A DNA stretch of 43,929 nucleotides from a virus (taxonomy: Duplodnaviria > Heunggongvirae > Uroviricota > Caudoviricetes), in IMG/VR virus record IMGVR_UViG_2654588006_000005, positions 1 to 43,929 of that record; one strand, 5' to 3'. Each line of letters opens with the position of its first letter. Position 1 is the first letter of the stretch. Both the position numbers and the translations under genes were made by a program. Positions 55 through 40,327 of the stretch are shown piece after piece. The notes under the pieces were generated by a model, which was given only the letters and a program-made list of their open reading frames with translations, had not been told where the DNA came from and made no database searches.

Positions 55-639
55 TTACTCCCTGACAGGGTTCGTAGGCCACTCAATATCAGGTGCAGTT
101 GATGTATCAACACGGTTCAGCAACACCCGATACTTTTTCCAGGCTTCCAGCAACAAGGTTTCTTCCTCCGTTGCGATTTCCAGATCTACAGCATCCTGAA
201 GTGGCGCAATATGCTCATTCGCTGCCTGCATCAGGCTGTTTTTTGTTTCTTCCGCCTCCCGGATCCGGAATAGTTTTTCTGCTTCTGCATCTTTCACCCA
301 GGCTGTGCCGTTCCACTTCTGAAACTCCCCTTCCGGGGATAACCAAGTGGCATTTTCCGGTAACGGACCGAGTTCAGAAATAAATAACGCGTCGCCGGAA
401 GCCACGTCATAAACCGTTTTACCCCGATGATCTTCAACGAGATGCCACGATGCCTCATCACTGTTGAAAACAGCCACGAAGCCTGCCGGAATATCTGGCG
501 GTGCAATATCGGTACTGTTTGCTGGCAGACCTGTATGAGGCGGAATATATGCGTCACCTTCACCAATAAATTCATTAGTTCCGGCCAGCAGATTATAAAT
601 TTTTATGGTCCGTGGTTGTTCACTCATTCTGAATGCCAT
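55..639 (-). CDS. tfa: tail fiber assembly protein Tfa (194 aa)
   Basis: Translation [24 protein letters not shown]... is near-identical to lambda Tfa as I recall it; same 194-aa length; start overlaps the stf stop. Confidence 0.9.
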
Positions 640-3600: not shown

Positions 3601-3989
3601 GACTTCTTCGCGGCTGCCGTGTTCTGTGCCACTGCGGACGCGTTACGCGCCACCTCTTCCACCATCAGTTCAAAACGTCGCAGAGCCTCCGGACGGGCAT
3701 CATCCTCCGTCATGGCACCGAGAAAATCATTCAGCGTACCGGGTCGGGAATCTTCATACACGGTGATGGTCCCGGCATGTGACGGCGGGAATCCTTCCAC
3801 CAACAGAATAACGCTGTACTGACCGTACTCAACGTCCATGCTGTAACGCCCGGCTTCATCCGGATTTTCTGAGGCCAGCGTGTTCACCACCACCGCGGTG
3901 CTGTTACGTTTTGCTTTCAGCTGGATTGTGCAGTTCTGTACCGGTTTTCCTGTGCCGTCTTTCAGTACACCTGAAATCTTTACTGCCAT
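639..3989 (-). CDS. stf: side tail fiber protein Stf (about 1116 aa), mosaic
   Basis: N-terminus [26 protein letters not shown] and C-terminal GAHTHS/HxH repeat region match lambda Stf; long Ala/Ser/Thr-rich low-complexity stretch; central ~500 aa differ from lambda. Start placed at the third codon of the track ORF (MAVKISG). Confidence 0.85.
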
Positions 3990-4053
3990 ATTCACCCCAC
4001 AAAAAAGCCCGCCTGAACAGGCGGGCTGTCATAACACTGTGTTACCTGGCTAA

Positions 4054-4653
4054 TCAGAACTTATAACCGACACCCACGATGAAACCGTCAGTGCGCCAGT
4101 CGCCACTGCCGGAGCCTTCATAAGCAATATCAATGGCCACGGATTCGGTCGGGTTAAACTGCACGCCAGCTCCCCACGCCAGAGACGTGTTGCTGTGGCG
4201 ACCGTCATCACTTCCGGTCAGCACGTCGTGCGTTTTCCCCTTGTTGTCAGTTACGCGAAGATAATCCCCGGAGAAAGTCGACACACGGCTGTAAACTACA
4301 CCCGCCATCGCATACGCGCTGAACCATTCATTCACGCGCACAGACGGCCCCGCCATTACGCTGAACCAGCGGTTACGAACGGAATCTTCATGCCAGCGGG
4401 TATCGCTGTAACGGGTCAGCTGGCGATTCTTGTCTCCTGCATAGCTGAATGACGTCACCATTCCCAGAGTGTCCGTAAACTCATAACGGTATTTCACGTT
4501 AATCCCGTTCAGATCATCGCTGCCGGAAACGTTCGTCGAGGCATGAAGATAGCCCGCGCTCAGCGTGGACTGATGTTCAGACGCCCATGCAGGCGCACCG
4601 GATACGGCCAGACAGATGGCTGCGGACAAAATGGCGGCATAAAGTTTACGCAT
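4054..4653 (-). CDS. lom: outer-membrane protein Lom (Ail/Lom family, 199 aa)
   Basis: Signal peptide MRKLYAAILSAAICLAVSGAPAWA, beta-barrel-like sequence ending ...GVGYKF, syntenic between J and stf as in lambda. Confidence 0.85.
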   Translation of the reverse strand: MRKLYAAILSAAICLAVSGAPAWASEHQSTLSAGYLHASTNVSGSDDLNGINVKYRYEFTDTLGMVTSFSYAGDKNRQLTRYSDTRWHEDSVRNRWFSVMAGPSVRVNEWFSAYAMAGVVYSRVSTFSGDYLRVTDNKGKTHDVLTGSDDGRHSNTSLAWGAGVQFNPTESVAIDIAYEGSGSGDWRTDGFIVGVGYKF

Positions 4654-26712: not shown

Positions 26713-26985
26713 ATGGACAATAGCACCATTTCTCTACAGGAGTTGCTCGACTGCATTTCCAGGCTTCGGGATGATGTAAATGCCCTTACTGTCGCATTTT
26801 CATATCTGGCATTCTCAATTCCCAAGGAACAAATGCAACCAACACTGGCATCGCTCCAGCTTGAATCAATCAATCCCAAATGGTCCCAGCAACAACAAAA
26901 TTCTTTCAAGTGGCTGGCGGTATTACTGGAGGAAAAATATGCTGGTGAAATTACCATTTCGGCGGAGTCTTCAGTGAACCAGTAA
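26713..26985 (+). CDS. hypothetical protein (90 aa), antisense to the lysis cassette
   Basis: AGAGGA RBS 6 nt upstream of ATG; protein-like composition; sits in the gap between the endolysin and the DUF1327-like ORF; function unknown. Confidence 0.3.
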   Translation: MDNSTISLQELLDCISRLRDDVNALTVAFSYLAFSIPKEQMQPTLASLQLESINPKWSQQQQNSFKWLAVLLEEKYAGEITISAESSVNQ

Positions 26986-27515: not shown

Positions 27516-27624
27516 ATCCCGCCCCAACAGACCTGTGCTACCGGAAAGAAAAAAGGCCATCAGCAAAACTCTGATGGCCTGAATCACCTTTACCAGTCAT
27601 GTATGAAAAAATACGCACAACCAA

Positions 27625-27756
27625 TTGACAATAATTATCATTTTCATTAAAAATACCGCGTAACATTCTTATTTCATGAAGAACCATACCCGCCAGCAAC
27701 CTGAGTAGCAAAAGCTGTTCATCCCCCATATTTTTGCTGGCGGGTTCTTTTTTCTA
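27625..27756 (+). ncRNA. candidate small RNA: near-consensus sigma70 promoter plus hairpin/U-tract terminator
   Basis: TTGACA (27625-27630), 17-bp spacer, TAAAAA(T); about 30 nt later CCCGCCAGCAA ... TTGCTGGCGGG inverted repeat followed by TTCTTTTTTCT; antisense to the late-operon leader upstream of S. Confidence 0.25.
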
Positions 27757-27977
27757 CTGCCCTCCTCCCCAGGAAAAGCATTTCATTCTTTTCTCATTAA
27801 TCGTTACTGGAGAGAAGGCGGGAAAAAGCCAGCTCTTTGGCCCTAAATAACAGCATGGCTTCAGTCCATACAGAATCTGATTTTCCAGCTCACATAATAA
27901 CCAGATGATGCAGTTGCAAAATCTGGCAACATCGGATTATTATGCGCCTGTGAAAATTTCTTCACGTTTTATTCCTT

Positions 27978-28013
27978 GCCGCCCGTGCCTCCCAGCGCGG
28001 GCTTTTTTATCCA
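27978..28013 (+). terminator. candidate intrinsic terminator (plus strand)
   Basis: GCCCGUGC / GCGCGGGC stem (one G-U pair) with CUCCCA loop followed by TTTTTTAT; preceded by a possible TTGCAA-17-TTATTA promoter. Confidence 0.4.
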
Positions 28014-28327
28014 AAAAATACCCCTCCGGAGAGGGGTATCATACAAGGGGATGACCATGATGCATGGTGCCGGGTGCCTCCCGGTGAGTCCGGCATCAGC
28101 ATACGAACCCGCGATTATCCCAGAACTGACTGCTGATTCGCCCCGCCGCTTAGGGGGATTCACCATGCGTTTTTTTATTTACAAACTCTTCGCCAGACAA
28201 ACAACCATTAACTGGCTGAATTGTGAGGTATTTCAATTTTTAGAAAACTGACCAACCTCCGCTTATACGCCGGGCATGGAGCGGATACAAAAAAGCCCCG
28301 CAAAAGCAGATCAGAAGGATTCGTTGT

Positions 28328-28366
28328 AAAAAAAAAGCTGTCAGATTATCGCGCTAATCTGACAGC
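28328..28366 (-). terminator. intrinsic terminator downstream of the methyltransferase gene
   Basis: Perfect 12-bp stem GCTGTCAGATTA / TAATCTGACAGC with 6-nt loop, followed on the minus strand by a run of 9 U. Confidence 0.55.
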
Positions 28367-28608
28367 TACAGCAGGTATCCAAAAACATGGGTGGAAACAA
28401 TAAGTGAGTTAAGAAGACACGGTGTCGGATTTTTACCGATGAGCCGTTGGCGTGGTCAACCGTGACTCGCTTGTATCAACGATGAATTAATGAAGCCAAT
28501 CCTTTGCAGGCTATGTACAACCCACCACATCAGCCCTGCTGCATTGCAGGATACACTGTATCTGTAATCATTATACGGCACAGACATCCCACCAATAATT
28601 GAATTAAT

Positions 28609-29670
28609 TCACAAAATTGTATTTGCTGATAACATACTGATTTCCTGGATGGTCTGATTAAACCGCTCTGTCTCAAGCTCAACACCTAACGCCCGACGCC
28701 CCAGCGCCATTGCTGCTTTTATTGTGGAACCGGATCCCATAAAGAAATCAGCAACCAGATCGCCGGGTCGACTACTGGCATTGATTATTTGCCTGAGCAT
28801 ATCCGCCGGTTTCTCACACGGATGTTTACCCGGGTAGAACTGAACGGGTTTATGCATCCAGACATCGGTATAAGGCACGGAGACTGATACGGAGAAATAG
28901 CGCCGGAGAGATTTAAACTCATCCAGCAATTCAGAATATTTGCGATTCAGTGAATCATAAGATGCCACCAACTGGTGGTGTGGTTGTTCCAGTTGTTGTT
29001 CCTGAAACTTCTCTGCCGCTATACGGGAAAACAGTGCCTGTAACTTCCGGTAGTCAGCCTCATTCGGCAACTGCCACTGACTGGCACCAAACCAGTGGGA
29101 AACCATATTTTTCTTACCTGTGGCTTCGGCAATTTGTTTTGCCGTTATACCCAGTTCGGCACGAGCATCCCTGAAATACGATATCAGCGGTGCCATTATG
29201 TGCTGTTTGAGTTCCCTTTCTTTTGCCACATAGCCGTCACTTTTGCCGCGATATGGCCCCCGGTAATGTTCAGCAAACAGAACGCGCTCTGTGGCAGGAA
29301 AATATGCGCGCAGACTTTCTTTATTACACCCATTCCAACGTCCGGACGGCTTCGCCCAGATGATATGGTTAAGCACGTTGAAACGTTCACGCATCATGAT
29401 CTCAATATCAGATGCCAGGCGATGCCCACAGAACAGGTAAAGGCTTCCGGCAGGTTTCAACACCCGCCAGAACTGGGCCAGACAGTGGTCCAGCCACTTA
29501 AGGTAATCTTCGTCCCCTTTCCACTGATTGTCCCAACCGTTGGGTTTCACCTTGAAGTAAGGCGGATCGGTAACAATCAGGTCAATGGAATCATCAGGCA
29601 GGGACTGAATAAAATGCAGGCAATCAGCGTTGATTAAATCAATACTGTTTATTTTTACAGTGTTTTTCAT
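28609..29670 (-). CDS. orphan DNA amino-methyltransferase (N6-adenine or N4-cytosine, beta-class; 353 aa)
   Basis: DPPY motif near the N-terminus (LIVTDPPYF) and FMGSGST (FxGxG SAM-binding) near the C-terminus; no adjacent restriction endonuclease gene. Confidence 0.85.
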   Translation of the reverse strand: MKNTVKINSIDLINADCLHFIQSLPDDSIDLIVTDPPYFKVKPNGWDNQWKGDEDYLKWLDHCLAQFWRVLKPAGSLYLFCGHRLASDIEIMMRERFNVLNHIIWAKPSGRWNGCNKESLRAYFPATERVLFAEHYRGPYRGKSDGYVAKERELKQHIMAPLISYFRDARAELGITAKQIAEATGKKNMVSHWFGASQWQLPNEADYRKLQALFSRIAAEKFQEQQLEQPHHQLVASYDSLNRKYSELLDEFKSLRRYFSVSVSVPYTDVWMHKPVQFYPGKHPCEKPADMLRQIINASSRPGDLVADFFMGSGSTIKAAMALGRRALGVELETERFNQTIQEISMLSANTIL

Positions 29671-29819
29671 GGATCAGTAAGCGTAACTCTGGTAGGCTCA
29701 CTCTGCTTTTGCGCTAAAGCAGTGGGCCATGGTTCGCTTGTGACCAGTAAGCATGAGCGAATGGCTGGCAGGTGCTACCAACACCCACCAGCCGCCCATT
29801 TTCACAAATTAAAAGCCCT

Positions 29820-30014
29820 TCATTGCTGAAGGCGTCTGTAACAGCCGAACTGGTAATCTGCCAGCCCCGCCATAACCAGCTGGGTCAGTATTAACTGACA
29901 GCGTTCGCGTGAAAGGTATGTGTTTTGTGCTATCTCCCCGACTGTTGCCGGTTTGCCGTTTAATTCATTAAAAACAACTTTCGCCGTTTCTGTCATATCT
30001 TGCTGTTTTAGCAT
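29820..30014 (-). CDS. hypothetical small winged-helix-like DNA-binding protein (64 aa)
   Basis: KPATVGEIAQNTYLSRERCQLILTQLVMAGLA helix-turn-helix-like segment; lies between the AT-rich cargo gene and the methyltransferase. Confidence 0.4.
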   Translation of the reverse strand: MLKQQDMTETAKVVFNELNGKPATVGEIAQNTYLSRERCQLILTQLVMAGLADYQFGCYRRLQQ

Positions 30015-30137
30015 GTCTTTTTACCTTCATGGTTAACATGACATACCAATAACTCTTGTCTAAAAAGCCAGCAAGATAAAAAGTCAGTATTCACGACCAC
30101 CAGCGTGTTTACCGTACTGCACCAATGTTTAATTTAT

Positions 30138-30158
30138 AAAAAAACCGCGAGAACGCGG
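30138..30158 (-). terminator. intrinsic terminator downstream of the AT-rich cargo gene
   Basis: CCGCG-AGAA-CGCGG hairpin followed on the minus strand by a U-tract (plus-strand A7), about 38 nt past the ORF stop. Confidence 0.5.
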
Positions 30159-30195
30159 TAAGTATTGTTAAAAAAAAACAGTAATTTCACTCAAC

Positions 30196-30726
30196 TTATT
30201 TAATACATTCTTTTGCTTGCGCATAATAAATTTTATGAGTATTAGCAAGCTTAACGAAGTTATACTTAACTGCCCCTAACAGGGTTCCAACTCTTGTATG
30301 CCCTTCCATTAAATGAAGCCCTGTTGTATTACTTTTCAGCAAAGCTCGATCTATAAAAAATGGAGGTTCACACCATGTGCCAAAATTACACCAATGCGCT
30401 TTTATTTCATCATCCATAAATACATCGCCTTTACGGGTTGTGAAATCTTCAACGACCTCATGCAAAAAATCAGGGTAAGTAGCATTATCCCCGATAGTTA
30501 AAAAATTTTTAGTGGGAAGTTCAATCAATTTCCATTCGATTTGGTCAATATTAAGATCCCCATAAAGCTCCTGAAATCTGTCATAACCTGCCAATCCATA
30601 ATAAATCTCCTGAATTACAGGAGTGGGGGCGGCGATAGAATATTGCTCACGAAGTATTCTTTCAGCCTCAGGAGCTTTAAATATGGGTCTTTCTGAGAAA
30701 ATAGGCAAAAGATCTCGGTATAACAT
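30196..30726 (-). CDS. hypothetical protein (176 aa) encoded by an AT-rich cargo gene immediately downstream of pR'/tR'
   Basis: Markedly lower GC than flanks; GGGGA RBS; bounded by tR'-like and downstream terminators; no signal peptide; C-terminal EGHTR motif only faintly ParB/Srx-like. Confidence 0.6.
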   Translation of the reverse strand: MLYRDLLPIFSERPIFKAPEAERILREQYSIAAPTPVIQEIYYGLAGYDRFQELYGDLNIDQIEWKLIELPTKNFLTIGDNATYPDFLHEVVEDFTTRKGDVFMDDEIKAHWCNFGTWCEPPFFIDRALLKSNTTGLHLMEGHTRVGTLLGAVKYNFVKLANTHKIYYAQAKECIK

Positions 30727-30740
30727 CCATATCCCCGTGT

Positions 30741-30775
30741 AAGAAAAAATAATTTAACCCGCTCGGCGGCGGGTT
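30741..30775 (-). terminator. tR'-like terminator ending a short 6S-like late leader RNA
   Basis: AACCCGC / GCGGGTT stem followed by AAATTATTTTTTCTT on the minus strand, about 50 nt downstream of the predicted pR' start site. Confidence 0.5.
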
Positions 30776-30814
30776 CTTGGACTCATCAACGGTAGACATA
30801 CAAAGCCCATCGTT

Positions 30815-30850
30815 GGGAAAATCTTATCCATATTTTTTGAGAAATGCAAG
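30815..30850 (-). promoter_or_regulatory. late promoter pR' (and presumably the Q-utilisation site)
   Basis: Minus strand TTGCAT-17-TAAGAT followed by ...CCAACGATGGG..., closely paralleling lambda pR' (TTGACT-17-TAAATT...CAACGATGGG) as recalled; about 35 nt downstream of the Q stop. Confidence 0.6.
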
Positions 30851-30880
30851 CATCATGTCGCCATCTTCGGTGAAAATCAC

Positions 30881-31633
30881 TTATCTCGTCACCTTTCTCA
30901 ATTGTGCTTCAGCGAATGCTTCTTCCTGCCAGCACTTTGTTACCAGTTTATCAATGACGTCTGCATATCCTTTGTACCACTGATAATCAGTCAGGTCTGG
31001 TACCAGCTTCTGGACATGACGTCGTGCCAGTGTGGTCGGTAAACGACTAAACCGGTTTCCATTGCAACGCCCACAAATCTTATAAACAGGCGCGCCATGA
31101 AGCCGGGTTCTTTTTTCATCCAGGACAATGCCTTTACCCTTACACCCTCTGCAAGCCGTGCTGACTTCTCCCTTACCATGGCAATGCTGACATAATTCCT
31201 TCACCCACTCTTCCTTGATAACAGATTCCCCGCTTCTGGAGTGTTTCACCACTTCGCGCAATACACTATGAAATCCAGTACCAGCACAATGCTCACAGCG
31301 AGCCTTACTTGCCGCAGACCTGGAATAATCAGCAAAGGCAAAACTCACAAGGTAAGGGATGATCTGTAACCGGGTTTCTTCACTCAATTTGTTCAATGTC
31401 GGGTTATCCATTGCCATCGCGTAATTGAGCAGACCTTCAATCGCAAACTGAGGATCCTGAACACCAACTTTTGCCAGGAATAAGGCAAACCCAAGCGGTG
31501 CTTTCGACTGCACCATCCCCTGCGCAGCCATCACATCCGTAATCGTTAAACCACCTGAGCCTGTCGCCGGTGCGTCATCGCTCAATTTTGGAGATTTTGG
31601 GGAGTAATATTTTGGTAAGGCTTCAAGGTTCAT
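30881..31633 (-). CDS. Q: late gene antiterminator Q (250 aa)
   Basis: N-terminus MNLEALPKYYSPKSPKLSDDAPATGSGGLTITDVMAAQGMVQS parallels lambda Q; Cys-rich zinc-finger-like region CEHCAGTG...CQHCHGKG...CRGCKGKG. Confidence 0.85.
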   Translation of the reverse strand: MNLEALPKYYSPKSPKLSDDAPATGSGGLTITDVMAAQGMVQSKAPLGFALFLAKVGVQDPQFAIEGLLNYAMAMDNPTLNKLSEETRLQIIPYLVSFAFADYSRSAASKARCEHCAGTGFHSVLREVVKHSRSGESVIKEEWVKELCQHCHGKGEVSTACRGCKGKGIVLDEKRTRLHGAPVYKICGRCNGNRFSRLPTTLARRHVQKLVPDLTDYQWYKGYADVIDKLVTKCWQEEAFAEAQLRKVTR

Positions 31634-31646
31634 GCTCGTTCTCCAC

Positions 31647-32642
31647 TTACGCCAGTACGCCTATTGCCAGCGCATGATCGATAAAACGAAATATCAGCTC
31701 CAGCTGGGAGCCATACATCTCTTCAAATGCCACGGTATCCGCATGCAGCTCGTCGTGATGCTTTCTGCACAAAGGCAACACAAAGAGGTCATGCGCTTTT
31801 GTACCCATTCCACCCTGACCATGGCCTATCAGGTGGTGGGGATCATCAGCAGGCTTTCCACAACATGCACACGGCTGTGTCTTAACCCAGCGCGTGTACT
31901 TTTCATTAACCCAGCGGCGACGTTTTGGGCGTAACATAAAAGACTCCGGCGACTCTGGCTCCACTTTCAGCGCCAGCACCTTTTTCGCTTTATCCTGGAT
32001 AATGCTGGTGGCAGGAACCGAAGGAACAAGGTCACTCTCCCGGGTGACAGACGGCACAACCGGCTTCGGTAATCTCAGTGCCTTACGGGCTGCACTTTCC
32101 GGTAAGGCATCCGCCAGGTCATTACGAACCAGCCACCAGCACAGTTCCGGCATTGTCACTACGTGACTGTCATCAAAACCGAGATCCCGACGCACGACAG
32201 ATAACACCCAGTGGGCACAGTTATCCGTTGCCATTGATTCCAGCCGTTCCGTGAACTGATCACGCAACTGGTTATCGCAGTGCCAACACAGACGAATTGC
32301 GCCCGGCGCGTGTCGCATTGTGGTCATGTTCTCGCTGTGCCAGTCGGAATGAGGCCACTGACAGCCCTTTTCACGAAGTAACCAGCTTTCAAGACATTCC
32401 ACGCCACCAGCACGACGGATCACTGCCTCATTGCGGAACACGGCCCGAACGGCAGGATCATCCGCCAGCGGTTGTGATGCCGCCGGAACGGCACCACTGG
32501 CGAAAGATGAATAACGTTCCGGCTCAGGCTCCAGCAGGACACGCCCCTGCATAAACAGGGGCATCAGCTCTGAACCTGGCCTGAACAATACGATCCCCAT
32601 ACGCGGGGCAATTTCAGGGGTCAGTAGTGCTCTCACGGTCAC
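31647..32642 (-). CDS. Nin-region protein with C-terminal HNH-like Cys/His motif (331 aa; DUF968-like, tentative)
   Basis: CACCGKPADDPHHLIGHGQGGMGTKAHDLFVLPLCRKHHDELH motif; position between rusA and Q. Confidence 0.5.
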   Translation of the reverse strand: MTVRALLTPEIAPRMGIVLFRPGSELMPLFMQGRVLLEPEPERYSSFASGAVPAASQPLADDPAVRAVFRNEAVIRRAGGVECLESWLLREKGCQWPHSDWHSENMTTMRHAPGAIRLCWHCDNQLRDQFTERLESMATDNCAHWVLSVVRRDLGFDDSHVVTMPELCWWLVRNDLADALPESAARKALRLPKPVVPSVTRESDLVPSVPATSIIQDKAKKVLALKVEPESPESFMLRPKRRRWVNEKYTRWVKTQPCACCGKPADDPHHLIGHGQGGMGTKAHDLFVLPLCRKHHDELHADTVAFEEMYGSQLELIFRFIDHALAIGVLA

Positions 32643-35689: not shown

Positions 35690-36028
35690 CTATTTCCCTG
35701 AATTTACGACGAAACTGTTCGAGCGGGCTGAAGCATTCATGCTCATAGCCTTCGCGGAGGTAGATAACCCGTTGTGTTTCCGGTTCCCAACGAATGACTC
35801 TGACGGGCACTCCGTAGTGATCTTTGAACCAGCGGTTAACTTGTTGCAAAGGACTGTCTCCTTCTGCCGGTTGAAATCACCCACAGCCCACTCTGCAAAG
35901 CTGTGGGTTACAATTTCCCTGTCACCTGGTACATTCACCGCATAGCAATACTCCACCTTCGCTTTTCCACCCGGTACAGGAAGCGCAATCAGTTGCGAGC
36001 GACGGTAGTGTGTTGTTAAACTGTTCAT
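35690..36028 (-). CDS. hypothetical protein (112 aa)
   Basis: GGAGA RBS; ATGA start/stop overlap with the upstream YdaT-like gene; no family recognized. Confidence 0.45.
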
Positions 36029-36609
36029 GCGTTAGTTTCTCCACAACCAGAAGCAATCGACGCCACGACGCCCGGAGCTGCACACTCGCGGGCGTTACTC
36101 TTTTCCGGCGCACAAAAAACACGAAATAACAGTGTTAAATGCTCCTGCCACTTCGCCATTACTTGGTAGCTGTTCTCTTCGATTTGCTCACGCTCAGCCT
36201 GGTCAATAACTCCATCAGCAGTTGCCTTGCGTAAGTACTGGGAATGCTTGCCAATCCATTCTATTGACTCCATCAGCCGCTGATTAATGTCACCATTGTC
36301 AATGTCATCAATGTTCACCAGCGGCACAAACACCCCATTACTACGACGCGCTATCGCATCCGTTACATGCCTGGTACCACTGGCATCCTGTAAAACCATG
36401 GCCCACTCAAGTGGAAAAATTTGATCCCCACCGCTACGCAGTCTGTTATGCAATTGATCTTTCGCTGGGGTGATATCATCAGATTTATACAAACCAAGAA
36501 TTTCCGCTGCTTCCTCATAGCCATGAGGTAAATCAGCAATCGTTCTTCGTATTGCTGCCACCAGCCATGCTGGTTGCTTATCAACTTTCCATTCAGGTTC
36601 TTTACCCAC
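36025..36609 (-). CDS. YdaT-like protein (194 aa), cII-position regulator (tentative)
   Basis: Immediately downstream of the Cro/YdaS-like gene, as ydaS-ydaT are arranged in the K-12 Rac prophage; family call from memory. Confidence 0.5.
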
Positions 36610-36637: not shown

Positions 36638-36901
36638 TTACGCAGTTGAACCGCTAACTTTTGAATAGCACTCAGGTAATCCATCATTTGGATTGGGGTA
36701 AATATCAGGACGCAGTTCATGAGGGGTCACGGACCAGTTTCCCAACTCACAAAGTTGTAAAACCCGTTCTGACGGGACTTGATTGTTAATTACCCAATTG
36801 GCGACGGATTGAGTGGACTTAAAACCAAAGCGACGGGCTACTTCAGATAAAGACTTTCCCGCAGCCTTTACTGCTTTCTCTGTGTAGTTTTGAGATGACA
36901 T
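36638..36901 (-). CDS. Cro-like HTH regulator (YdaS family, 87 aa)
   Basis: Divergent from the repressor gene; GKSLSEVARRFGFKSTQSVANWVINNQVP helix-turn-helix; AGGAGA RBS. Confidence 0.7.
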   Translation of the reverse strand: MSSQNYTEKAVKAAGKSLSEVARRFGFKSTQSVANWVINNQVPSERVLQLCELGNWSVTPHELRPDIYPNPNDGLPECYSKVSGSTA

Positions 36902-37007
36902 ACCTTTCTCCTCTGAAATTCAGAGGGATGATGCTACTTAAAATAGCAAATTGCAACTACTTAAAATAGAAATGACTAGCGCGTGTGATGTGAGTAATCT
37001 TCTACCT
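36902..37007. promoter_or_regulatory. immunity control region (oR/pR/pRM equivalent)
   Basis: Divergent intergenic region with two direct copies of CTACTTAAAATAG, a 15-bp palindrome CTCTGAAATTCAGAG over the cro-like RBS, and a 19-bp palindrome CTTCTACCTATGGTAGAAG at the repressor start. Confidence 0.55.
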
Positions 37008-37712
37008 ATGGTAGAAGAACAGAAGTATCCAGATTTCGCCAAGAGACTAAACGAATTGATGACAATCAAAGGAATCTCTGTCACTCAACTCAAAAGTCTT
37101 GTGGGCGTTACATATGAAATGGCTCGTCGATACACAATCGGCGCAGCGAAGCCACGTGTCTCTGTCATGAGTAAACTTGCGTTGGCTCTTGGAGTATCAG
37201 CTTCATATCTAGAATATGGTGTTGGAGATAGAGAGGAATGTAAGGAAATGGCAAGCATCCCCAATCCAACAAAGCCCGATGTATACAGGATAGAAGTTTT
37301 GGATCTTAGCGTTAGCGCAGGACCTGGGACCTATATGCTTTCAGACTATGTTGATGTGCTCTACGCCATTGAGTTCACAACTGAACATGCCCGTTCTCTT
37401 TTCGGAAACCGTTCTCAGAATGATATAAAAGTTATGACGGTAAATGGAGATAGTATGTCCCCAACTCTTGTTTCCGGGGATCGATTGTTTGTCGACATTT
37501 CCGTTCGCCACTTCCAGACTGATGGAGTTTACTCTTTCGTTTACGGTAAGACTTTCCATGTTAAACGTCTACAAATGCAAGGCAACAAACTAGCTGTTCT
37601 TTCGGATAACCCCGCCTATGAGAAATGGTACATTGATGAGAAGTCGCAAGATCAGCTTTATGTTATGGGTAAGGCACTGATTCATGAGTCGATTAAATAT
37701 AATCGACTTTAA
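36972..37712 (+). CDS. CI-like prophage repressor, HTH (XRE) + S24 LexA-like peptidase (about 246 aa)
   Basis: HTH segment ISVTQLKSLVGVTYEMARRYTIG; C-terminal S24 motifs (VNGDSMSPT Ser, downstream KR Lys). Start ambiguous: 36972 (MTSACDV) or 37008 (MVEEQK); probably leaderless. Confidence 0.8.
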   Translation: MTSACDVSNLLPMVEEQKYPDFAKRLNELMTIKGISVTQLKSLVGVTYEMARRYTIGAAKPRVSVMSKLALALGVSASYLEYGVGDREECKEMASIPNPTKPDVYRIEVLDLSVSAGPGTYMLSDYVDVLYAIEFTTEHARSLFGNRSQNDIKVMTVNGDSMSPTLVSGDRLFVDISVRHFQTDGVYSFVYGKTFHVKRLQMQGNKLAVLSDNPAYEKWYIDEKSQDQLYVMGKALIHESIKYNRL

Positions 37713-37946: not shown

Positions 37947-39032
37947 ATGATTAATGAACGTACTGAAGCGACAGATGGGGTAGCAGATATGATTTCCACC
38001 AATACAAAATATTTAGTATGGAACAACAAAGGTGGTGTAGGAAAAACTTTTCTTACATATAATCTTGCCGTTGAGTTTGCTATATCTCATCCGGATCAAG
38101 ATGTTGTGGTTATTGACTCATGCCCTCAATCAAACGTTTCAGAAATTATTCTTGGTGGCAATGGTACCGGGGAAGAAAATCTAAATAAATTGCGAGACAG
38201 AAATGTTACAATCGCAGGTTATATCAAGGAGCGTTTTAGCAAATCTCCTTTGTCTCGTTTAGGAAATGAATCTTCTTACTTTGTACGAGCCCATGATGTT
38301 AATACAAAAATGCCAGAGAACTTATATATTCTTCCTGGTGATGTCGATCTTGATATCTGTTCACGCTTAATATCTCACATTGGCTCATCCCCAGTAAAAG
38401 AAGCATGGAAGAAAAGCCGATCTTTGCTGGTAGATCTAATAGCATCTTTTGAAGCCGATAAAAACATTTCTGACAGAGCAAAAACATTTTTTATTGATTG
38501 TAATCCAAGTTTTGCCAGCTACACAGAATTGGGAGTAGTCGCGGCAAATAGAATAATTATCCCTTGCACTGCCGATGCTGCATCAATTCGCGGAATAAAA
38601 AACCTTGTTAAACTTATTTATGGAGTGTCTATTGACAAGTCAGAACAAGATGAAATGTTCTTAGATTTCAACAAAGAAGCAAAGCAAAACCTTATCGAAC
38701 TACCTGAACTACACCTTTTCGTACAAAACCGCTCAAGAACTAATGAAAGTGATGCAGCAAAAGCATTCAAATCACATGCAGAAGAGATCAAAAGAATCAC
38801 GGATGACCTGTTAAATACACATCCTCATCTGTTCACAAATGTGGCTACTTTCGAGAGAGTTCAAAATGTCAAAGATGGTAATACTCTTGCAGCAATAATA
38901 AACCATGAGGGATGCCCTTTAAGTAGGCTGCAGCATAAGAGTTACACTATCTATGGTATGGCGACCCAAGCTAATAGAGCACAAATTGAAGCACTAGAAT
39001 CTGATGTTTCAACAGTAGTCAAGTGTCTGTAA
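37947..39032 (+). CDS. ParA/MinD-family P-loop ATPase (361 aa), AT-rich cargo gene at the rex-equivalent position
   Basis: Deviant Walker A WNNKGGVGKT, Walker A' VIDSCPQSN, Walker B FFIDCNPSF; low-GC gene and flanks; same strand and position (downstream of cI) as lambda rexAB. Confidence 0.75.
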   Translation: MINERTEATDGVADMISTNTKYLVWNNKGGVGKTFLTYNLAVEFAISHPDQDVVVIDSCPQSNVSEIILGGNGTGEENLNKLRDRNVTIAGYIKERFSKSPLSRLGNESSYFVRAHDVNTKMPENLYILPGDVDLDICSRLISHIGSSPVKEAWKKSRSLLVDLIASFEADKNISDRAKTFFIDCNPSFASYTELGVVAANRIIIPCTADAASIRGIKNLVKLIYGVSIDKSEQDEMFLDFNKEAKQNLIELPELHLFVQNRSRTNESDAAKAFKSHAEEIKRITDDLLNTHPHLFTNVATFERVQNVKDGNTLAAIINHEGCPLSRLQHKSYTIYGMATQANRAQIEALESDVSTVVKCL

Positions 39033-39068
39033 TACAATAACCATGATTTAGAACGAACATAATTCTCG

Positions 39069-39091
39069 CCCGACCAACCGGTCGGGTTTTA
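39069..39091 (+). terminator. intrinsic terminator after the ParA-like gene (t-imm equivalent)
   Basis: CCCGACC-AACC-GGTCGGG hairpin followed by TTTTAT, 37 nt past the stop codon. Confidence 0.5.
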
Positions 39092-39294
39092 TACTCGTAG
39101 CCTGCTTAATAACACTGTTCCTGACCCGTTGTATCCATAGTTCCCACTATTTTCCCCCAAATTATTACTATCTAATTAACCTAATAATTAAACCAAAACA
39201 AAAGACACTCGATATTTTCTATACGTAACTACGCCACATCACCCCATCTGTGAAAAACCTTTTAATTCATAACGTTATATAGAAAACTAAAAAT

Positions 39295-39376
39295 TAAATA
39301 CACGCTTCTACTTTTTGTTGTTGATTTTTGCTACTTTTAGTAGCATCATTATCTGAACAAACAACAGACTGTTGTT
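39295..39376 (+). promoter_or_regulatory. candidate oL/pL region with operator-like repeats and a 17-bp perfect palindrome
   Basis: CTACTTTTTG and CTACTTTTAGTAG resemble the CTACTTAAAATAG repeats at oR; AACAACAGACTGTTGTT palindrome at 39360-39376. Confidence 0.35.
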
Positions 39377-39781
39377 AACGAAAGGTTGGTTGTAACACGG
39401 CGTATGGCACATGCGTCGTTAGCGGTCTGGGGACGTTAAAGGGGACAATCCACTCCTTGCTCGGGCAAACAAACCAGGTAGCCGGAATGTGCAAGTCAAT
39501 GAGGATGCTGATAAGACGCCTAACCAGCGTGGCGATTCGGTTTGACGCCTGGGAAGAGACCAGGGTGCAACGATGAGGGCATTTATGGAACCGCGACAAA
39601 GTGTGGTGCCGTAACTGGCTAAGTGCTCTCAGCGTTGTGGTGAATGCGCAGGCTGATGCGCGAAAGACATTGCAGCTATTGCGGAAAAGAGCTGTTCGGC
39701 GGGGCAATTAAACGCCCGTGAGAGTCTGAAATAACCGCAAGCCGGAGATCAGCACCGGTCACCACAACAGCCACTGCTTTG
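39377..39781 (+). other. ORF-free, relatively GC-rich structured early-left leader (candidate ncRNA or RNA-based antitermination element)
   Basis: Stops in all three plus-strand frames (longest ATG-initiated ORF about 29 codons); the only track ORF is a non-protein-like minus-strand ORF; ends at a strong terminator. Confidence 0.35.
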
Positions 39782-39827
39782 GCGGTACCAGTTTGTACCC
39801 TTGCTTCCGGCTGGTACCGCTCTTTTT
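39782..39827 (+). terminator. intrinsic terminator within the early-left leader (tL1-like / attenuator)
   Basis: 10-bp perfect stem GCGGTACCAG / CTGGTACCGC with 19-nt loop followed by TCTTTTT. Confidence 0.55.
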
Positions 39828-39916
39828 ACAAAACAGAGAAGAGCATCACCGGACGACGGGCTCATAACCCAATCCATCCGGGCGGCTGCCACCGCAGGTG
39901 TTCTTCTCTGTTTTGT
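39828..39916 (+). promoter_or_regulatory. long-range inverted repeat (15-bp arms, 59-nt spacer) immediately upstream of the first early-left ORF
   Basis: ACAAAACAGAGAAGA ... TCTTCTCTGTTTTGT enclosing a GC-rich segment; 30-50 nt upstream of the GAGGAG RBS of the yfdP-like ORF. Confidence 0.35.
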
Positions 39917-39964
39917 GGAGAAACTAACCGACCTTACAGGGTCGATATGATGAGGAGCAGCAAA

Positions 39965-40327
39965 ATGGCTAGCGAACGCAGTACTGATGTGCAGGCATTT
40001 ATCGGGGAGCTGGACGGCGGCGTATTTGAAACCAAAATCGGCGCAGTTCTCAGTGAAGTCGCTTCCGGTGTGATGAACACGAAAACCAAAGGTAAGGTCT
40101 CACTCAACCTGGAAATCGAACCATTTGATGAGAACCGTGTGAAAATCAAACACAAACTCTCATATGTTCGCCCGACTAACCGCGGGAAAATTTCCGAAGA
40201 AGACACCACCGAAACGCCGATGTATGTCAATCGCGGTGGTCGCCTGACTATTCTGCAGGAAGACCAGGGACAATTACTGACTCTTGCCGGTGAACCTGAC
40301 GGAAAACTCCGCGCAGCAGGTCATTAA
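39965..40327 (+). CDS. hypothetical protein, YfdP-like (120 aa)
   Basis: GAGGAG RBS before MASERSTDVQAFIGELDGG...; 120 aa and position match my recollection of the K-12 CPS-53 yfdP-yfdT cluster; the track ORF starts further upstream but that part overlaps the leader structures. Confidence 0.5.
   Translation: MASERSTDVQAFIGELDGGVFETKIGAVLSEVASGVMNTKTKGKVSLNLEIEPFDENRVKIKHKLSYVRPTNRGKISEEDTTETPMYVNRGGRLTILQEDQGQLLTLAGEPDGKLRAAGH

Follow-up and report, generated by a model that had tools for sequence, protein, structure and literature searches.

What occupies the early left leader of a lambdoid phage in which the N gene is missing? This question is raised by positions 39092–39964 of the DNA stretch analysed here (IMG/VR record IMGVR_UViG_2654588006_000005, 43,929 nt, referred to below as the window), which represents an Escherichia coli lambdoid prophage. 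The region contains the pL promoter with its operators and an untranslated leader of about 600 nt, while a gene for N is absent from it. Results of our analysis indicate that the leader is a chain of five plus-strand RNA modules, arranged as A-X1-B-C-X2. Compensatory base changes maintain four separate structures in this chain and its homologues (A, B, X and X2), and in three modules these changes are well above those in shuffled and slid controls. The reading that we favour, with middling confidence, is that pL is followed by a cassette resembling a tRNA operon, composed of mobile, structured noncoding RNA (ncRNA) modules that are processed from the transcript, and that the terminator within the cassette also attenuates the genes from yfdP to int.

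Promoter and coding capacity of the leader

The oL operators and the predicted pL promoter lie at 39305–39357 (plus strand). CTACTT is repeated at 39308 and 39331, and positions 39330–39344 form a 15-bp palindrome, GCTACTTTTAGTAGC. The -35 box TTGATT (39321–39326) is separated from the -10 box CATCAT (39344–39349) by a 17-nt spacer that contains the operator palindrome. The sequence 39306–39349 is 80% identical, over 44 nt, to the oR/pR region (36928–36971), where pR is of the same design (TTGCAA, a 17-nt spacer carrying GCTAnTTTnAGTAGC, and CATCAT). Because of this common design and identity we read 39321–39349 as pL with oL; a simple consensus promoter scan did not call it. Transcription would start at about 39356, and the perfect 17-bp palindrome at 39360–39376 (AACAACAG-A-CTGTTGTT, plus strand) would form the 5'-proximal hairpin of the pL transcript. 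The block that is conserved in other phages, as revealed by BLAST comparison with phage records, starts directly after this palindrome, at 39376, and extends to the start of yfdP. The GC content over about 39380–39900 is 0.45–0.57, as compared to 0.32–0.38 in the upstream flank and 0.38–0.50 in the downstream one, and the GC skew is positive over about 39300–39800.

No open reading frame (ORF) of at least 60 aa starts on the plus strand in 39092–39964. The longest ones, of 39 and 36 aa, are not conserved, each frame contains 10–20 stop codons, and a 182-aa ORF with a TTG start is simply an upstream extension of yfdP. An N or Nun ORF directly after pL was not found, in a screen for N that covered only part of the ORFs of the window. 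Since no such ORF was found there, the leader is probably not an N/nut antitermination device. The original prediction, which was made from the letters of the sequence, had described the empty N/Nun slot with its dense stops, the operator-like repeats sharing CTACTT with oR, the 17-bp palindrome, the GC-richer segment, a strong intrinsic terminator in front of the early left genes and an inverted repeat spanning 89 nt. All these features are present, at or within a few bases of where it had placed them, the terminator being at 39781–39827 and the inverted repeat at 39828–39916.

Module A and unit X1

Module A (39391–39566, plus strand) is a structured RNA of about 175 nt with five helices and two candidate pseudoknots. 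Hairpin H1 (39398–39418) has the invariant loop GGCAC, helix P2 (39423–39430 with 39474–39484) encloses a variable region, P4 (39516–39530) is a hairpin, and hairpin P5 (39548–39564) has the invariant loop GAAGAGA. The candidate pseudoknot PK1 would join the GCAC of the H1 loop (39407–39410) to GUGC (39489–39492), a pairing that is invariant, whereas the candidate PK2 would join the AACC of the P4 loop (39522–39525) to GGUU (39539–39542) and becomes CACC/GGUG in 23 sequences. In the alignment of 28 diverse homologues, which are 156–188 nt long, 97.6% of the cells are paired, as compared to 89% in shuffles and about 30% when the partners are slid. Both sides are changed in 11 pairs (72 cells), and none of 500 shuffles reached this cell count. 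The length differences between homologues are not multiples of 3, which argues against a conserved reading frame. Of 123 loci, 54 have a tRNA gene directly next to module A on its strand, namely tRNA-Ile2/Met immediately upstream (26 loci) or tRNA-Arg about 160 nt downstream (28 loci). In Uetakevirus-type phages, module A precedes tRNA-Arg.

In T1-like and some other phages, a different conserved noncoding module takes the place of A upstream of the X unit. It is found at 1330–1560 of locus L005, as well as in L010, L019, L027, L047, L244, and L275, and has the sequence GATAGTTTTCG..GCGACTTTGCGG..AAAGATAAATGCAAACGA..GGCGCACTGGCCCGGTGTGATTAATAATGGGCAC. Its presence suggests a larger kit of such RNAs.

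Unit X1 (39567–39639, plus strand) is a long irregular hairpin with a variable apex; its 5' and 3' arms, which pair, are GCAACGATGAGGGCATT and AAGTGCTCTCAGCGTTGTG, respectively. The consensus of the X family consists of CACAACAGGTAAGAGCATT, 40–150 variable nt, and CAGTGCTCTTTCCGTTGTGG; the arms covary (AGAGCA/TGCTCT, AGCGCA/TGCGCT, AGGGCA/TGCCCT, AGAACA/TGTTCT), and some of the variable tips contain T-arm-like hairpins of the GGTTCGAnTCC type. When G-U pairs are allowed, the plus strand is 9/9 paired and the opposite strand 8/9. The X unit is thereby assigned to the plus strand, because the G-U pairs leave a mismatch on the opposite strand only. A candidate third X unit at about position 26787 of the window (minus strand) was rejected as a chance match inside coding sequence.

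Module B, a tRNA-like junction with exchangeable inserts

Module B (39637–39766, plus strand) is a tRNA-like three-way junction with covarying stems, kissing loops and a hypervariable insert. Its closing stem is formed by GTGGTG (39637–39642), after which comes AAU, and CACCAC (39760–39765), after which comes A. The stem encloses the first hairpin (39646–39661, GCGCA-GGCUGA-UGCGC), the insert (39662–39740) and the last hairpin (39741–39759) with the loop AGATCAGCA, the family form of the latter hairpin being GCCGG-AGAUCAGCA-CCGG(U/C). The two hairpin loops are complementary to each other (GCUGA with UCAGC).

Among 175 distinct B units, the frame is nearly invariant, while the insert varies from 40 to 190 nt and is unrelated between phages. 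In 52 distinct scaffolds, 12 of 21 pairs are changed on both sides, as compared to 2.3 in shuffles (0 of 500 reached the observed value). As a caveat, these sequences were retrieved through their near-identity to the frame, so that only limited variation could be seen among them. The loop–loop helix itself underwent a double compensatory change at one locus, from GCUGA/UCAGC to GUCGA/UCGAC, and an alternative scaffold pairs AAAUGG with CCAU.

The unit that follows the 3' arm of X always starts with GTGG. It has the B frame in 45 loci, the alternative frame in 42 loci, and is a genuine tRNA-Arg(TCT) in 33 loci; units of a fourth type are evidently tRNA-derived: their D and T arms are canonical and their insert is oversized. 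Position -1 is U in 165 of the 175 B units, and A follows the stem, at the discriminator position, in 166 of them. Because of the slot shared with tRNAs, the U at -1 and the A discriminator, we call module B tRNA-like and a plausible substrate of RNase P. It also has an acceptor-type stem stacked on a T-arm-like hairpin, both of which covary, and an RNase P-type 5' context. It is not a tRNA, as ARAGORN detected neither a tRNA nor a tmRNA in the window, and 38900–40100 gave no match to the tRNA model of Rfam at E values up to 10.

One family of inserts (L062, L071, L081) matches nucleotides 254–282 of E. coli 16S rRNA with 86–90% identity, and its stem has undergone a compensatory change (UAGGUG/CACCUA to AUGGUG/CACCAU). 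In the comparison with the E. coli rrn operon, the sequences of this family were the only ones to match, 3 of 87. An insert related to this family was seen by eye in L084, and nested tRNA-like sequence is present in the inserts of L109 and L296. The cargo domains of B may thus mimic host RNAs. A tmRNA-like reading of the insert of the window, as a GCA-started frame ending with UAA, was rejected: the tag is not conserved, the other inserts are unrelated, and the ARAGORN result was negative.

Frequent locations of module B are the pL leader and the late leader, where it lies between Q and the lysis genes. The neighbourhoods of B, in which cI, yfdP-R, Q or lysis genes are found, revealed no conserved protein partner. 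In some copies the distance from a -10-like box to the start is about 7 nt, and in 78 of the 175 units (45%) a hairpin resembling a terminator, with a T-run, is found no more than 170 nt downstream. Some B copies are therefore stand-alone genes, with a -10-like box of their own and a terminator within 170 nt.

Module C and unit X2

Module C (39767–39827, plus strand) folds into a single-stranded linker of 14 nt, AACAGCCACUGCUU, followed by an intrinsic terminator, in which the stem 39781–39791 with 39811–39821 precedes a TCTTTTT U-tract that ends at 39827 (-21.2 kcal/mol). Directly downstream lies unit X2 (39828–39916, plus strand), an 89-nt hairpin or inverted repeat in which a closing stem of 18 pairs leads to a three-way junction. 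A fold z-score of -7.1 was obtained for the 195 nt that include X2, and the X2 consensus, based on 21 distinct homologues, comprises 31 pairs, 9 of them with compensatory changes.

One branch of X2 (39857–39870, CGGGCTCATAACCC; in RNA CGGGCUCAUAACCC, GGG-CUCAUAA-CCC) is identical over its 14 nt to the anticodon stem-loop of tRNA-Met. The tRNA-Met gene sequence that was used for this comparison is a 100% match to annotated tRNA-Met genes in all 5426 E. coli genomes; we take it to be that of the initiator tRNA-fMet. All 92 copies of X2 have the CAT (CAU), and 89 of them retain the GGG/CCC stem. X2 is nearly always located directly upstream of a gene of the yfdP family. The 16-nt string TTGTGGAGAAACTAAC at the 3' end of X2 (39913–39928, plus strand) recurs in the pR operon, where the CII-like gene meets the ORF that follows it (36031–36046, minus-strand sense; E=0.035), and may be a shared translation-initiation region.

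A sequence after the terminator, CGCTCTTTTTACAAAAC, had been compared in the original prediction to boxA, with the reservation that it could be the U-tract. The reservation was justified, as this sequence is the 3' strand of the terminator and its U-tract entering the 5' arm of the next hairpin. Two sequences of the leader resemble boxA, CGCTCTTTTT (39818–39827) and GTGCTCTC (39623–39630). Both are inside helices that covary in homologues, and a boxB-type hairpin was not identified.

Distribution and modularity

The segments of the leader match different phages in BLAST comparisons with phage records. The segment 39386–39640 matches the unannotated gap between trnI and ban in P1, P7, and SJ46, and sequences immediately upstream of tRNA-Arg in TL-2011b and O157 typing phage 9. 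A piece of about 45 nt (39620–39665) has counterparts of more than 90% identity in Ackermannviridae, T1-like, Erwinia, Edwardsiella, and Cronobacter phages, where they lie in unannotated gaps about 200 nt upstream of tRNA genes. The segment 39780–39964 matches SfV and SfIV upstream of their yfdP homologues. Prophage CPS-53 of E. coli K-12 has none of the RNA modules, sharing with the window only about 30 nt before the ATG of yfdP, and was therefore of no use as a source of curated annotation.

Exact-pattern scans of IMG/VR yielded more than 120 contigs for each of three module cores. The exact cores of both A and B are present in only 26 of 229 loci (with a spacing of 163 nt in 21 of these 26), which indicates that the modules travel separately. 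All of the more than 50 flanking tRNAs are on the strand of the modules. Besides prophage leaders, the modules are found next to tRNA genes in lytic T1-like phages, Ackermannviridae, Uetakevirus phages and P1, and also as stand-alone promoter-to-terminator units. The exact 25-mer of the 5' part of B is present in the genomes of 50 species, including Beta-, Alpha-, and Deltaproteobacteria (Janthinobacterium, Massilia, Undibacterium, Xenophilus, Aeromonas, Marinobacterium, Martelella, and a metagenome-assembled genome (MAG) of Geobacteraceae), often between tRNAs. Examples from outside Enterobacterales, with unrelated inserts and by tRNA genes, are L285 (Massilia), L306–L310, L315 and L326 (Janthinobacterium), L295 (Martelella), and L296 (the Geobacteraceae MAG).

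Modules A and X1 are present in 1376 of 5426 complete E. coli genomes, the B variant of the window in 845 of them, and B also on about 240 P1-like plasmids. Among the matches listed, the RefSeq annotation under every module match is 'None'. A 931-nt query around the region is 100% identical to several E. coli chromosomes, in which yfdP is the only feature annotated there by PGAP. In P1 (AF234172; locus L003) three pieces are found, at 309–404, 569–688, and 1501–1683 of the locus, which correspond to 69820–69915, 70080–70199, and 71012–71194 of the record. A 96-nt copy of module B in P1 overlaps, on the opposite strand, the annotated ORF upl, which may be a mis-annotation; a sub-threshold STnc100-like element (33 bits) precedes tciA, and the 5' two-thirds of module A lie, directly after trnI, in the unannotated gap between trnI and ban.

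The scan of the whole window with Rfam 15 at gathering thresholds gave no match on the modules, the permissive scan of the region gave nothing better than E=1.2 among 4227 families, and scans of 10 related loci gave no module match. All the Rfam scans together found only IS009, STnc100 (elsewhere in the window), tRNAs, C4, and isrK. Known riboswitch, ribozyme, tmRNA, C4, ROOL, and GOLLD identities were rejected, as no family matched in the region. In the library that we searched, no paper describing modules A, X, B or X2 was found. They would best be classified as new families within a known kind of RNA, namely structured, tRNA-like ncRNAs associated with phage tRNA islands.

An explanation by non-functional, decayed tRNA genes, or by protein-coding sequence such as the 110-aa minus-strand ORF 39375–39707, is extremely improbable. 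It is true that module B is clearly tRNA-derived and is not a working tRNA, that mEp460 and other records annotate minus-strand ORFs (the ORF 39375–39707 is annotated in mEp460 as hypothetical proteins), and that the minus strand is open for 80–120 aa in most homologues. However, decay or coding would not explain why compensatory changes keep four separate structures, why the modules are nearly identical across distant phages and bacterial classes, and why length differences do not come in multiples of 3. No Pfam family was assigned to the ORF, its frame is not conserved, and its N-terminal part is replaced in 43 loci with the alternative B scaffold. In the mEp460 record (L001), mEp460_037 and mEp460_036 (3963–4331 and 4373–4516) are drawn opposite modules A, X1, B, and C; these 'hypothetical proteins' are probably mis-annotations. 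Of the two outcomes that the original prediction had weighed against each other, a novel ncRNA and a decayed pseudogene remnant, it is thus a conserved structured RNA that is found. Of the checks that it had proposed, the covariation analysis across homologues revealed compensatory changes well above controls, and the Rfam scan assigned no family to the modules.

Comparison with known phage RNAs

In the slot, the strand and the often tandem arrangement, module B resembles phage tRNAs. Common to both are also the acceptor-like stem stacked on a T-arm-like hairpin, the U at -1 and the A discriminator, and some relatives of B keep canonical D and T arms, as tRNAs do. Unlike in tRNAs, the anticodon arm is replaced in B by a variable insert of 40–190 nt, CCA is rarely encoded, and a Watson-Crick kissing helix is present instead of the D-loop/T-loop elbow.

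A second resemblance is to STnc100 and PasD1/PasD2, small RNAs (sRNAs) of E. coli and Salmonella that are likewise encoded by prophages, in leaders close to genes of Q, lysis or stx. PasD, which is abundant and was validated by Northern blots, depends on Hfq and has its predicted seed, UGUGAG, in the linker before its terminator (PMC8550237; bioRxiv 10.64898/2026.05.13.724894); a Storz-lab preprint relates it to STnc100. We compared the layout of PasD2 of enteropathogenic E. coli (EPEC), of STnc100 of the window (28009–28197), and of module B+C in unconstrained minimum free energy folds. All have a closing helix starting with (A/G)UGGUGAAU, a 3-nt spacer, a first hairpin, variable hairpins, a last 5-bp hairpin that abuts the closing helix, a linker of about 15–40 nt, and a Rho-independent terminator. 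Module B differs from STnc100/PasD in loop sequences, in its covarying 5-bp loop–loop helix and in its far wider host range, and is usually embedded after an X unit or a tRNA, whereas STnc100/PasD starts at its own promoter. PasA/PasC was considered as a counterpart of module C and rejected, since the PasA sequence and locus in E2348/69 bear no resemblance to it. YrlA/Y-RNA was rejected as well: its arms are in a different order (T then D, with a Ro-binding motif), and neither rsr nor rtcB is nearby (PMC4201824).

The absence of N, together with a good terminator in front of the first gene, makes one consider whether the leader itself acts in cis as an antiterminator. The put RNA of phage HK022 acts in cis, through the beta' zinc-binding domain, to render RNA polymerase resistant to terminators. 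The leader is like put in that it is a structured RNA just after pL, in a lambdoid phage without N and with terminators downstream. The put element is, however, an RNA of about 70 nt with two stem-loops that occurs downstream of both pL and pR, as putL and putR (PMC9378689). A blastn search (word size 7) against the HK022 immunity region (27600–32600) revealed no similarity, and a second copy of the leader was not found in the pR operon of the window, where the only match was the oL/oR promoter-operator similarity; modules are also found outside operon leaders, unlike put. Because of the lack of similarity and of a pR copy, the leader is probably not a put device, and the put-like option of the original prediction is not supported.

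In a more general form of this explanation, A or A-X1-B would bind the transcribing RNA polymerase, as HK022 put and Bacillus EAR do, read through terminators and thereby replace N. Module A is located just downstream of a promoter in this window and in Uetakevirus-type loci, and the frequent position of B in the pL leader or in the late leader between Q and lysis genes would suit such a function. A put-like mechanism 'may' be used, as stated without data by the Casjens lab, by the related N-less lambdoids LLS and 2H10-like phages (PMC12315714). We nevertheless find an antiterminator of this kind unlikely. Apart from the lack of HK022 similarity and of a pR paralogue, the modules occur beside tRNAs in lytic phages, and also as self-contained promoter-to-terminator units; in P1, copies are part of the ban operon, where a terminator is not nearby; and A and B are each found without the other, as their cores coincide so rarely.

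Certain small phage RNAs with tRNA-like ends, C4 of P1 and P7 and CI of P4, are cut by RNase P from a leader transcript. An RNase P-processed cis-antisense regulator of this type, with loops of a tRNA-like RNA pairing with its own operon, would be compatible with the tRNA-like RNA in a phage regulatory leader, with the A and B copies of P1, and with the presence of C4 and isrK in some of the same contigs. On the other hand, the Rfam C4 model found no match, and in the search for cis targets of the B insert in the 43.9-kb window 4 complementary matches of 10–11 nt were found where 5.05 were expected from shuffles, which is at chance level. We therefore regard such a regulator as very unlikely.

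Similar in setting are ROOL and GOLLD, which are encoded by phages and prophages and in many cases lie near tRNA islands. These RNAs have pseudoknots, a linker that is not conserved, and covarying kissing loops that proved to be intermolecular (PMC12286853). Phage encoding, proximity to tRNA islands, pseudoknots and a variable linker also characterize the modules described here. This brings in a possible, though less probable, explanation than the one we favour: the scaffolds would display cargo that mimics host RNAs and sequesters host or defence factors, or their loops would build multimers as in ROOL and GOLLD. The pattern seen in B, an exact 25-mer across proteobacterial classes with unrelated inserts, is reminiscent of an arms race; one insert family copies 16S rRNA with compensatory changes, others carry nested tRNA, and X2 carries a copy of the tRNA-fMet anticodon arm. 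However, the ROOL and GOLLD covariance models did not match the region, the rRNA operon was matched by a few inserts only, and no defence-related partner gene is consistently nearby. The modules are known here from sequence and are 90–190 nt long, recombining independently, in contrast to the single 580–800-nt fold of ROOL/GOLLD, which makes one fixed large fold unlikely, and their hosts are Proteobacteria, whereas those of ROOL/GOLLD are mainly Firmicutes or environmental lineages.

Proposed expression of the cassette

If the leader is a processed, tRNA-operon-like cassette, as we favour, the loss of the repressor would allow pL to fire at about 39356, and the nascent RNA would fold one module after another. 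RNase P would cut at the 5' end of the tRNA-like module B (39636/39637), as it does with a pre-tRNA, and release an A-X1 RNA of about 280 nt and a B-C RNA of about 190 nt that ends at the terminator (39827), both being stable and appearing early after induction. The B-C RNA would be an sRNA of the STnc100/PasD type, acting in trans, with a compact 5' domain, a single-stranded linker that pairs with targets, and a terminator hairpin. As most transcripts are proposed to stop at the terminator, it would also attenuate the early left genes, and the fraction that reads through would express yfdP-yfdT, xis, and int, with X2 as a gene-proximal element of the yfdP family. From among the options of the original prediction (a put-like RNA, an attenuator or riboswitch-like leader, a processed stable RNA), the processed stable RNA, with the terminator as an attenuator, fits our results best; the riboswitch found no counterpart among Rfam riboswitch families, and the put-like RNA is not supported, as described above.

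Several points weigh against this proposal. No activity is assigned in it to module A, and if the efficiency of the terminator is near 100%, some antitermination must exist. CCA is encoded in only 8 of the 175 B units, and the consensus closing stem is 6 bp with an A-C mismatch, so that RNase P cleavage of B is no more than plausible. The analogy of B-C to sRNAs is one of architecture: module B had no match to the Rfam STnc100 model even at E=10, nor had the alternative and intermediate B scaffolds, and because it does not score with this model we describe B+C as built like STnc100 and not as a member of that family. In addition, the hypervariable part of the B-C RNA is the insert and not the linker, which is unlike what a simple seed model implies.

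Flanking genes and other elements of the window

Upstream of the region, the immunity genes comprise a CII-like gene (36025–36609, minus strand), a Cro/YdaS-like gene (36638–36901, minus strand), the S24 repressor gene cI (36951–37712, plus strand), and, in the rexAB position, a gene of a ParA-like ATPase (37947–39032, plus strand). The latter protein has 361 aa and belongs to PHROG 164 (Pfam AAA_31); its gene is of low GC content (0.33–0.40) and is inserted between cI and the t-imm terminator. mEp460 lacks this gene, which resembles an immunity-region moron and for which PADLOC gave no credible match. The transcript of cI and the ParA-like gene ends at t-imm (39068–39095, plus strand), an intrinsic terminator with the hairpin GCCCGACC-AACC-GGTCGGGT (39068–39087; -15.4 kcal/mol) followed by the T-run TTTTAT.

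Downstream of X2, the segment 39929–39967 contains a small hairpin, CGACC-TTACAG-GGTCG (39929–39944, plus strand), and the Shine-Dalgarno sequence GAGGAG (39952–39957, plus strand) in front of the yfdP start codon (ATG at 39965). yfdP (39965–40327, plus strand) is the first early left gene, and is followed by yfdQ (DUF2303), yfdR, yfdS, yfdT, xis/torI, and a gene of an IntS-type integrase. Elsewhere in the window, a Q-like antiterminator gene (30881–31633, minus strand) has downstream of it a full-length STnc100 (RF02076; 28009–28197, minus strand; 114.5 bits in Rfam), and IS009 is found near the window start (98–296, minus strand; 213.9 bits in Rfam).

Significance

The modules are common yet unannotated, with A and X1 present in a quarter of complete E. 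coli genomes and copies in P1. They fill the slot of the missing N in a large group of lambdoid phages, to which Stx-converting and cdt phages belong, and tie together phage tRNA genes, prophage sRNAs of the STnc100/PasD type, and the ROOL/GOLLD RNAs beside phage tRNA islands. For the annotation of such genomes, the 'hypothetical protein' ORFs drawn over modules, of which mEp460_036/037 and P1 upl are examples, are probably mis-annotations.

Speculatively, modules A, X, and B may represent a previously undescribed, Proteobacteria-wide toolkit of phage 'tRNA-island' RNAs, in which B would be a programmable scaffold, locked by kissing loops and loaded with swapped cargo, and X2 would show an initiator-tRNA anticodon arm. 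Such RNAs could act on host RNA-binding enzymes or anti-phage nucleases as decoys or sponges, or could be the units from which RNA-only assemblies are built. If this scaffold-plus-cargo idea is true, the engineered tRNA scaffold would have in module B a natural counterpart, which could also represent a new layer of the conflict between phages and their hosts.

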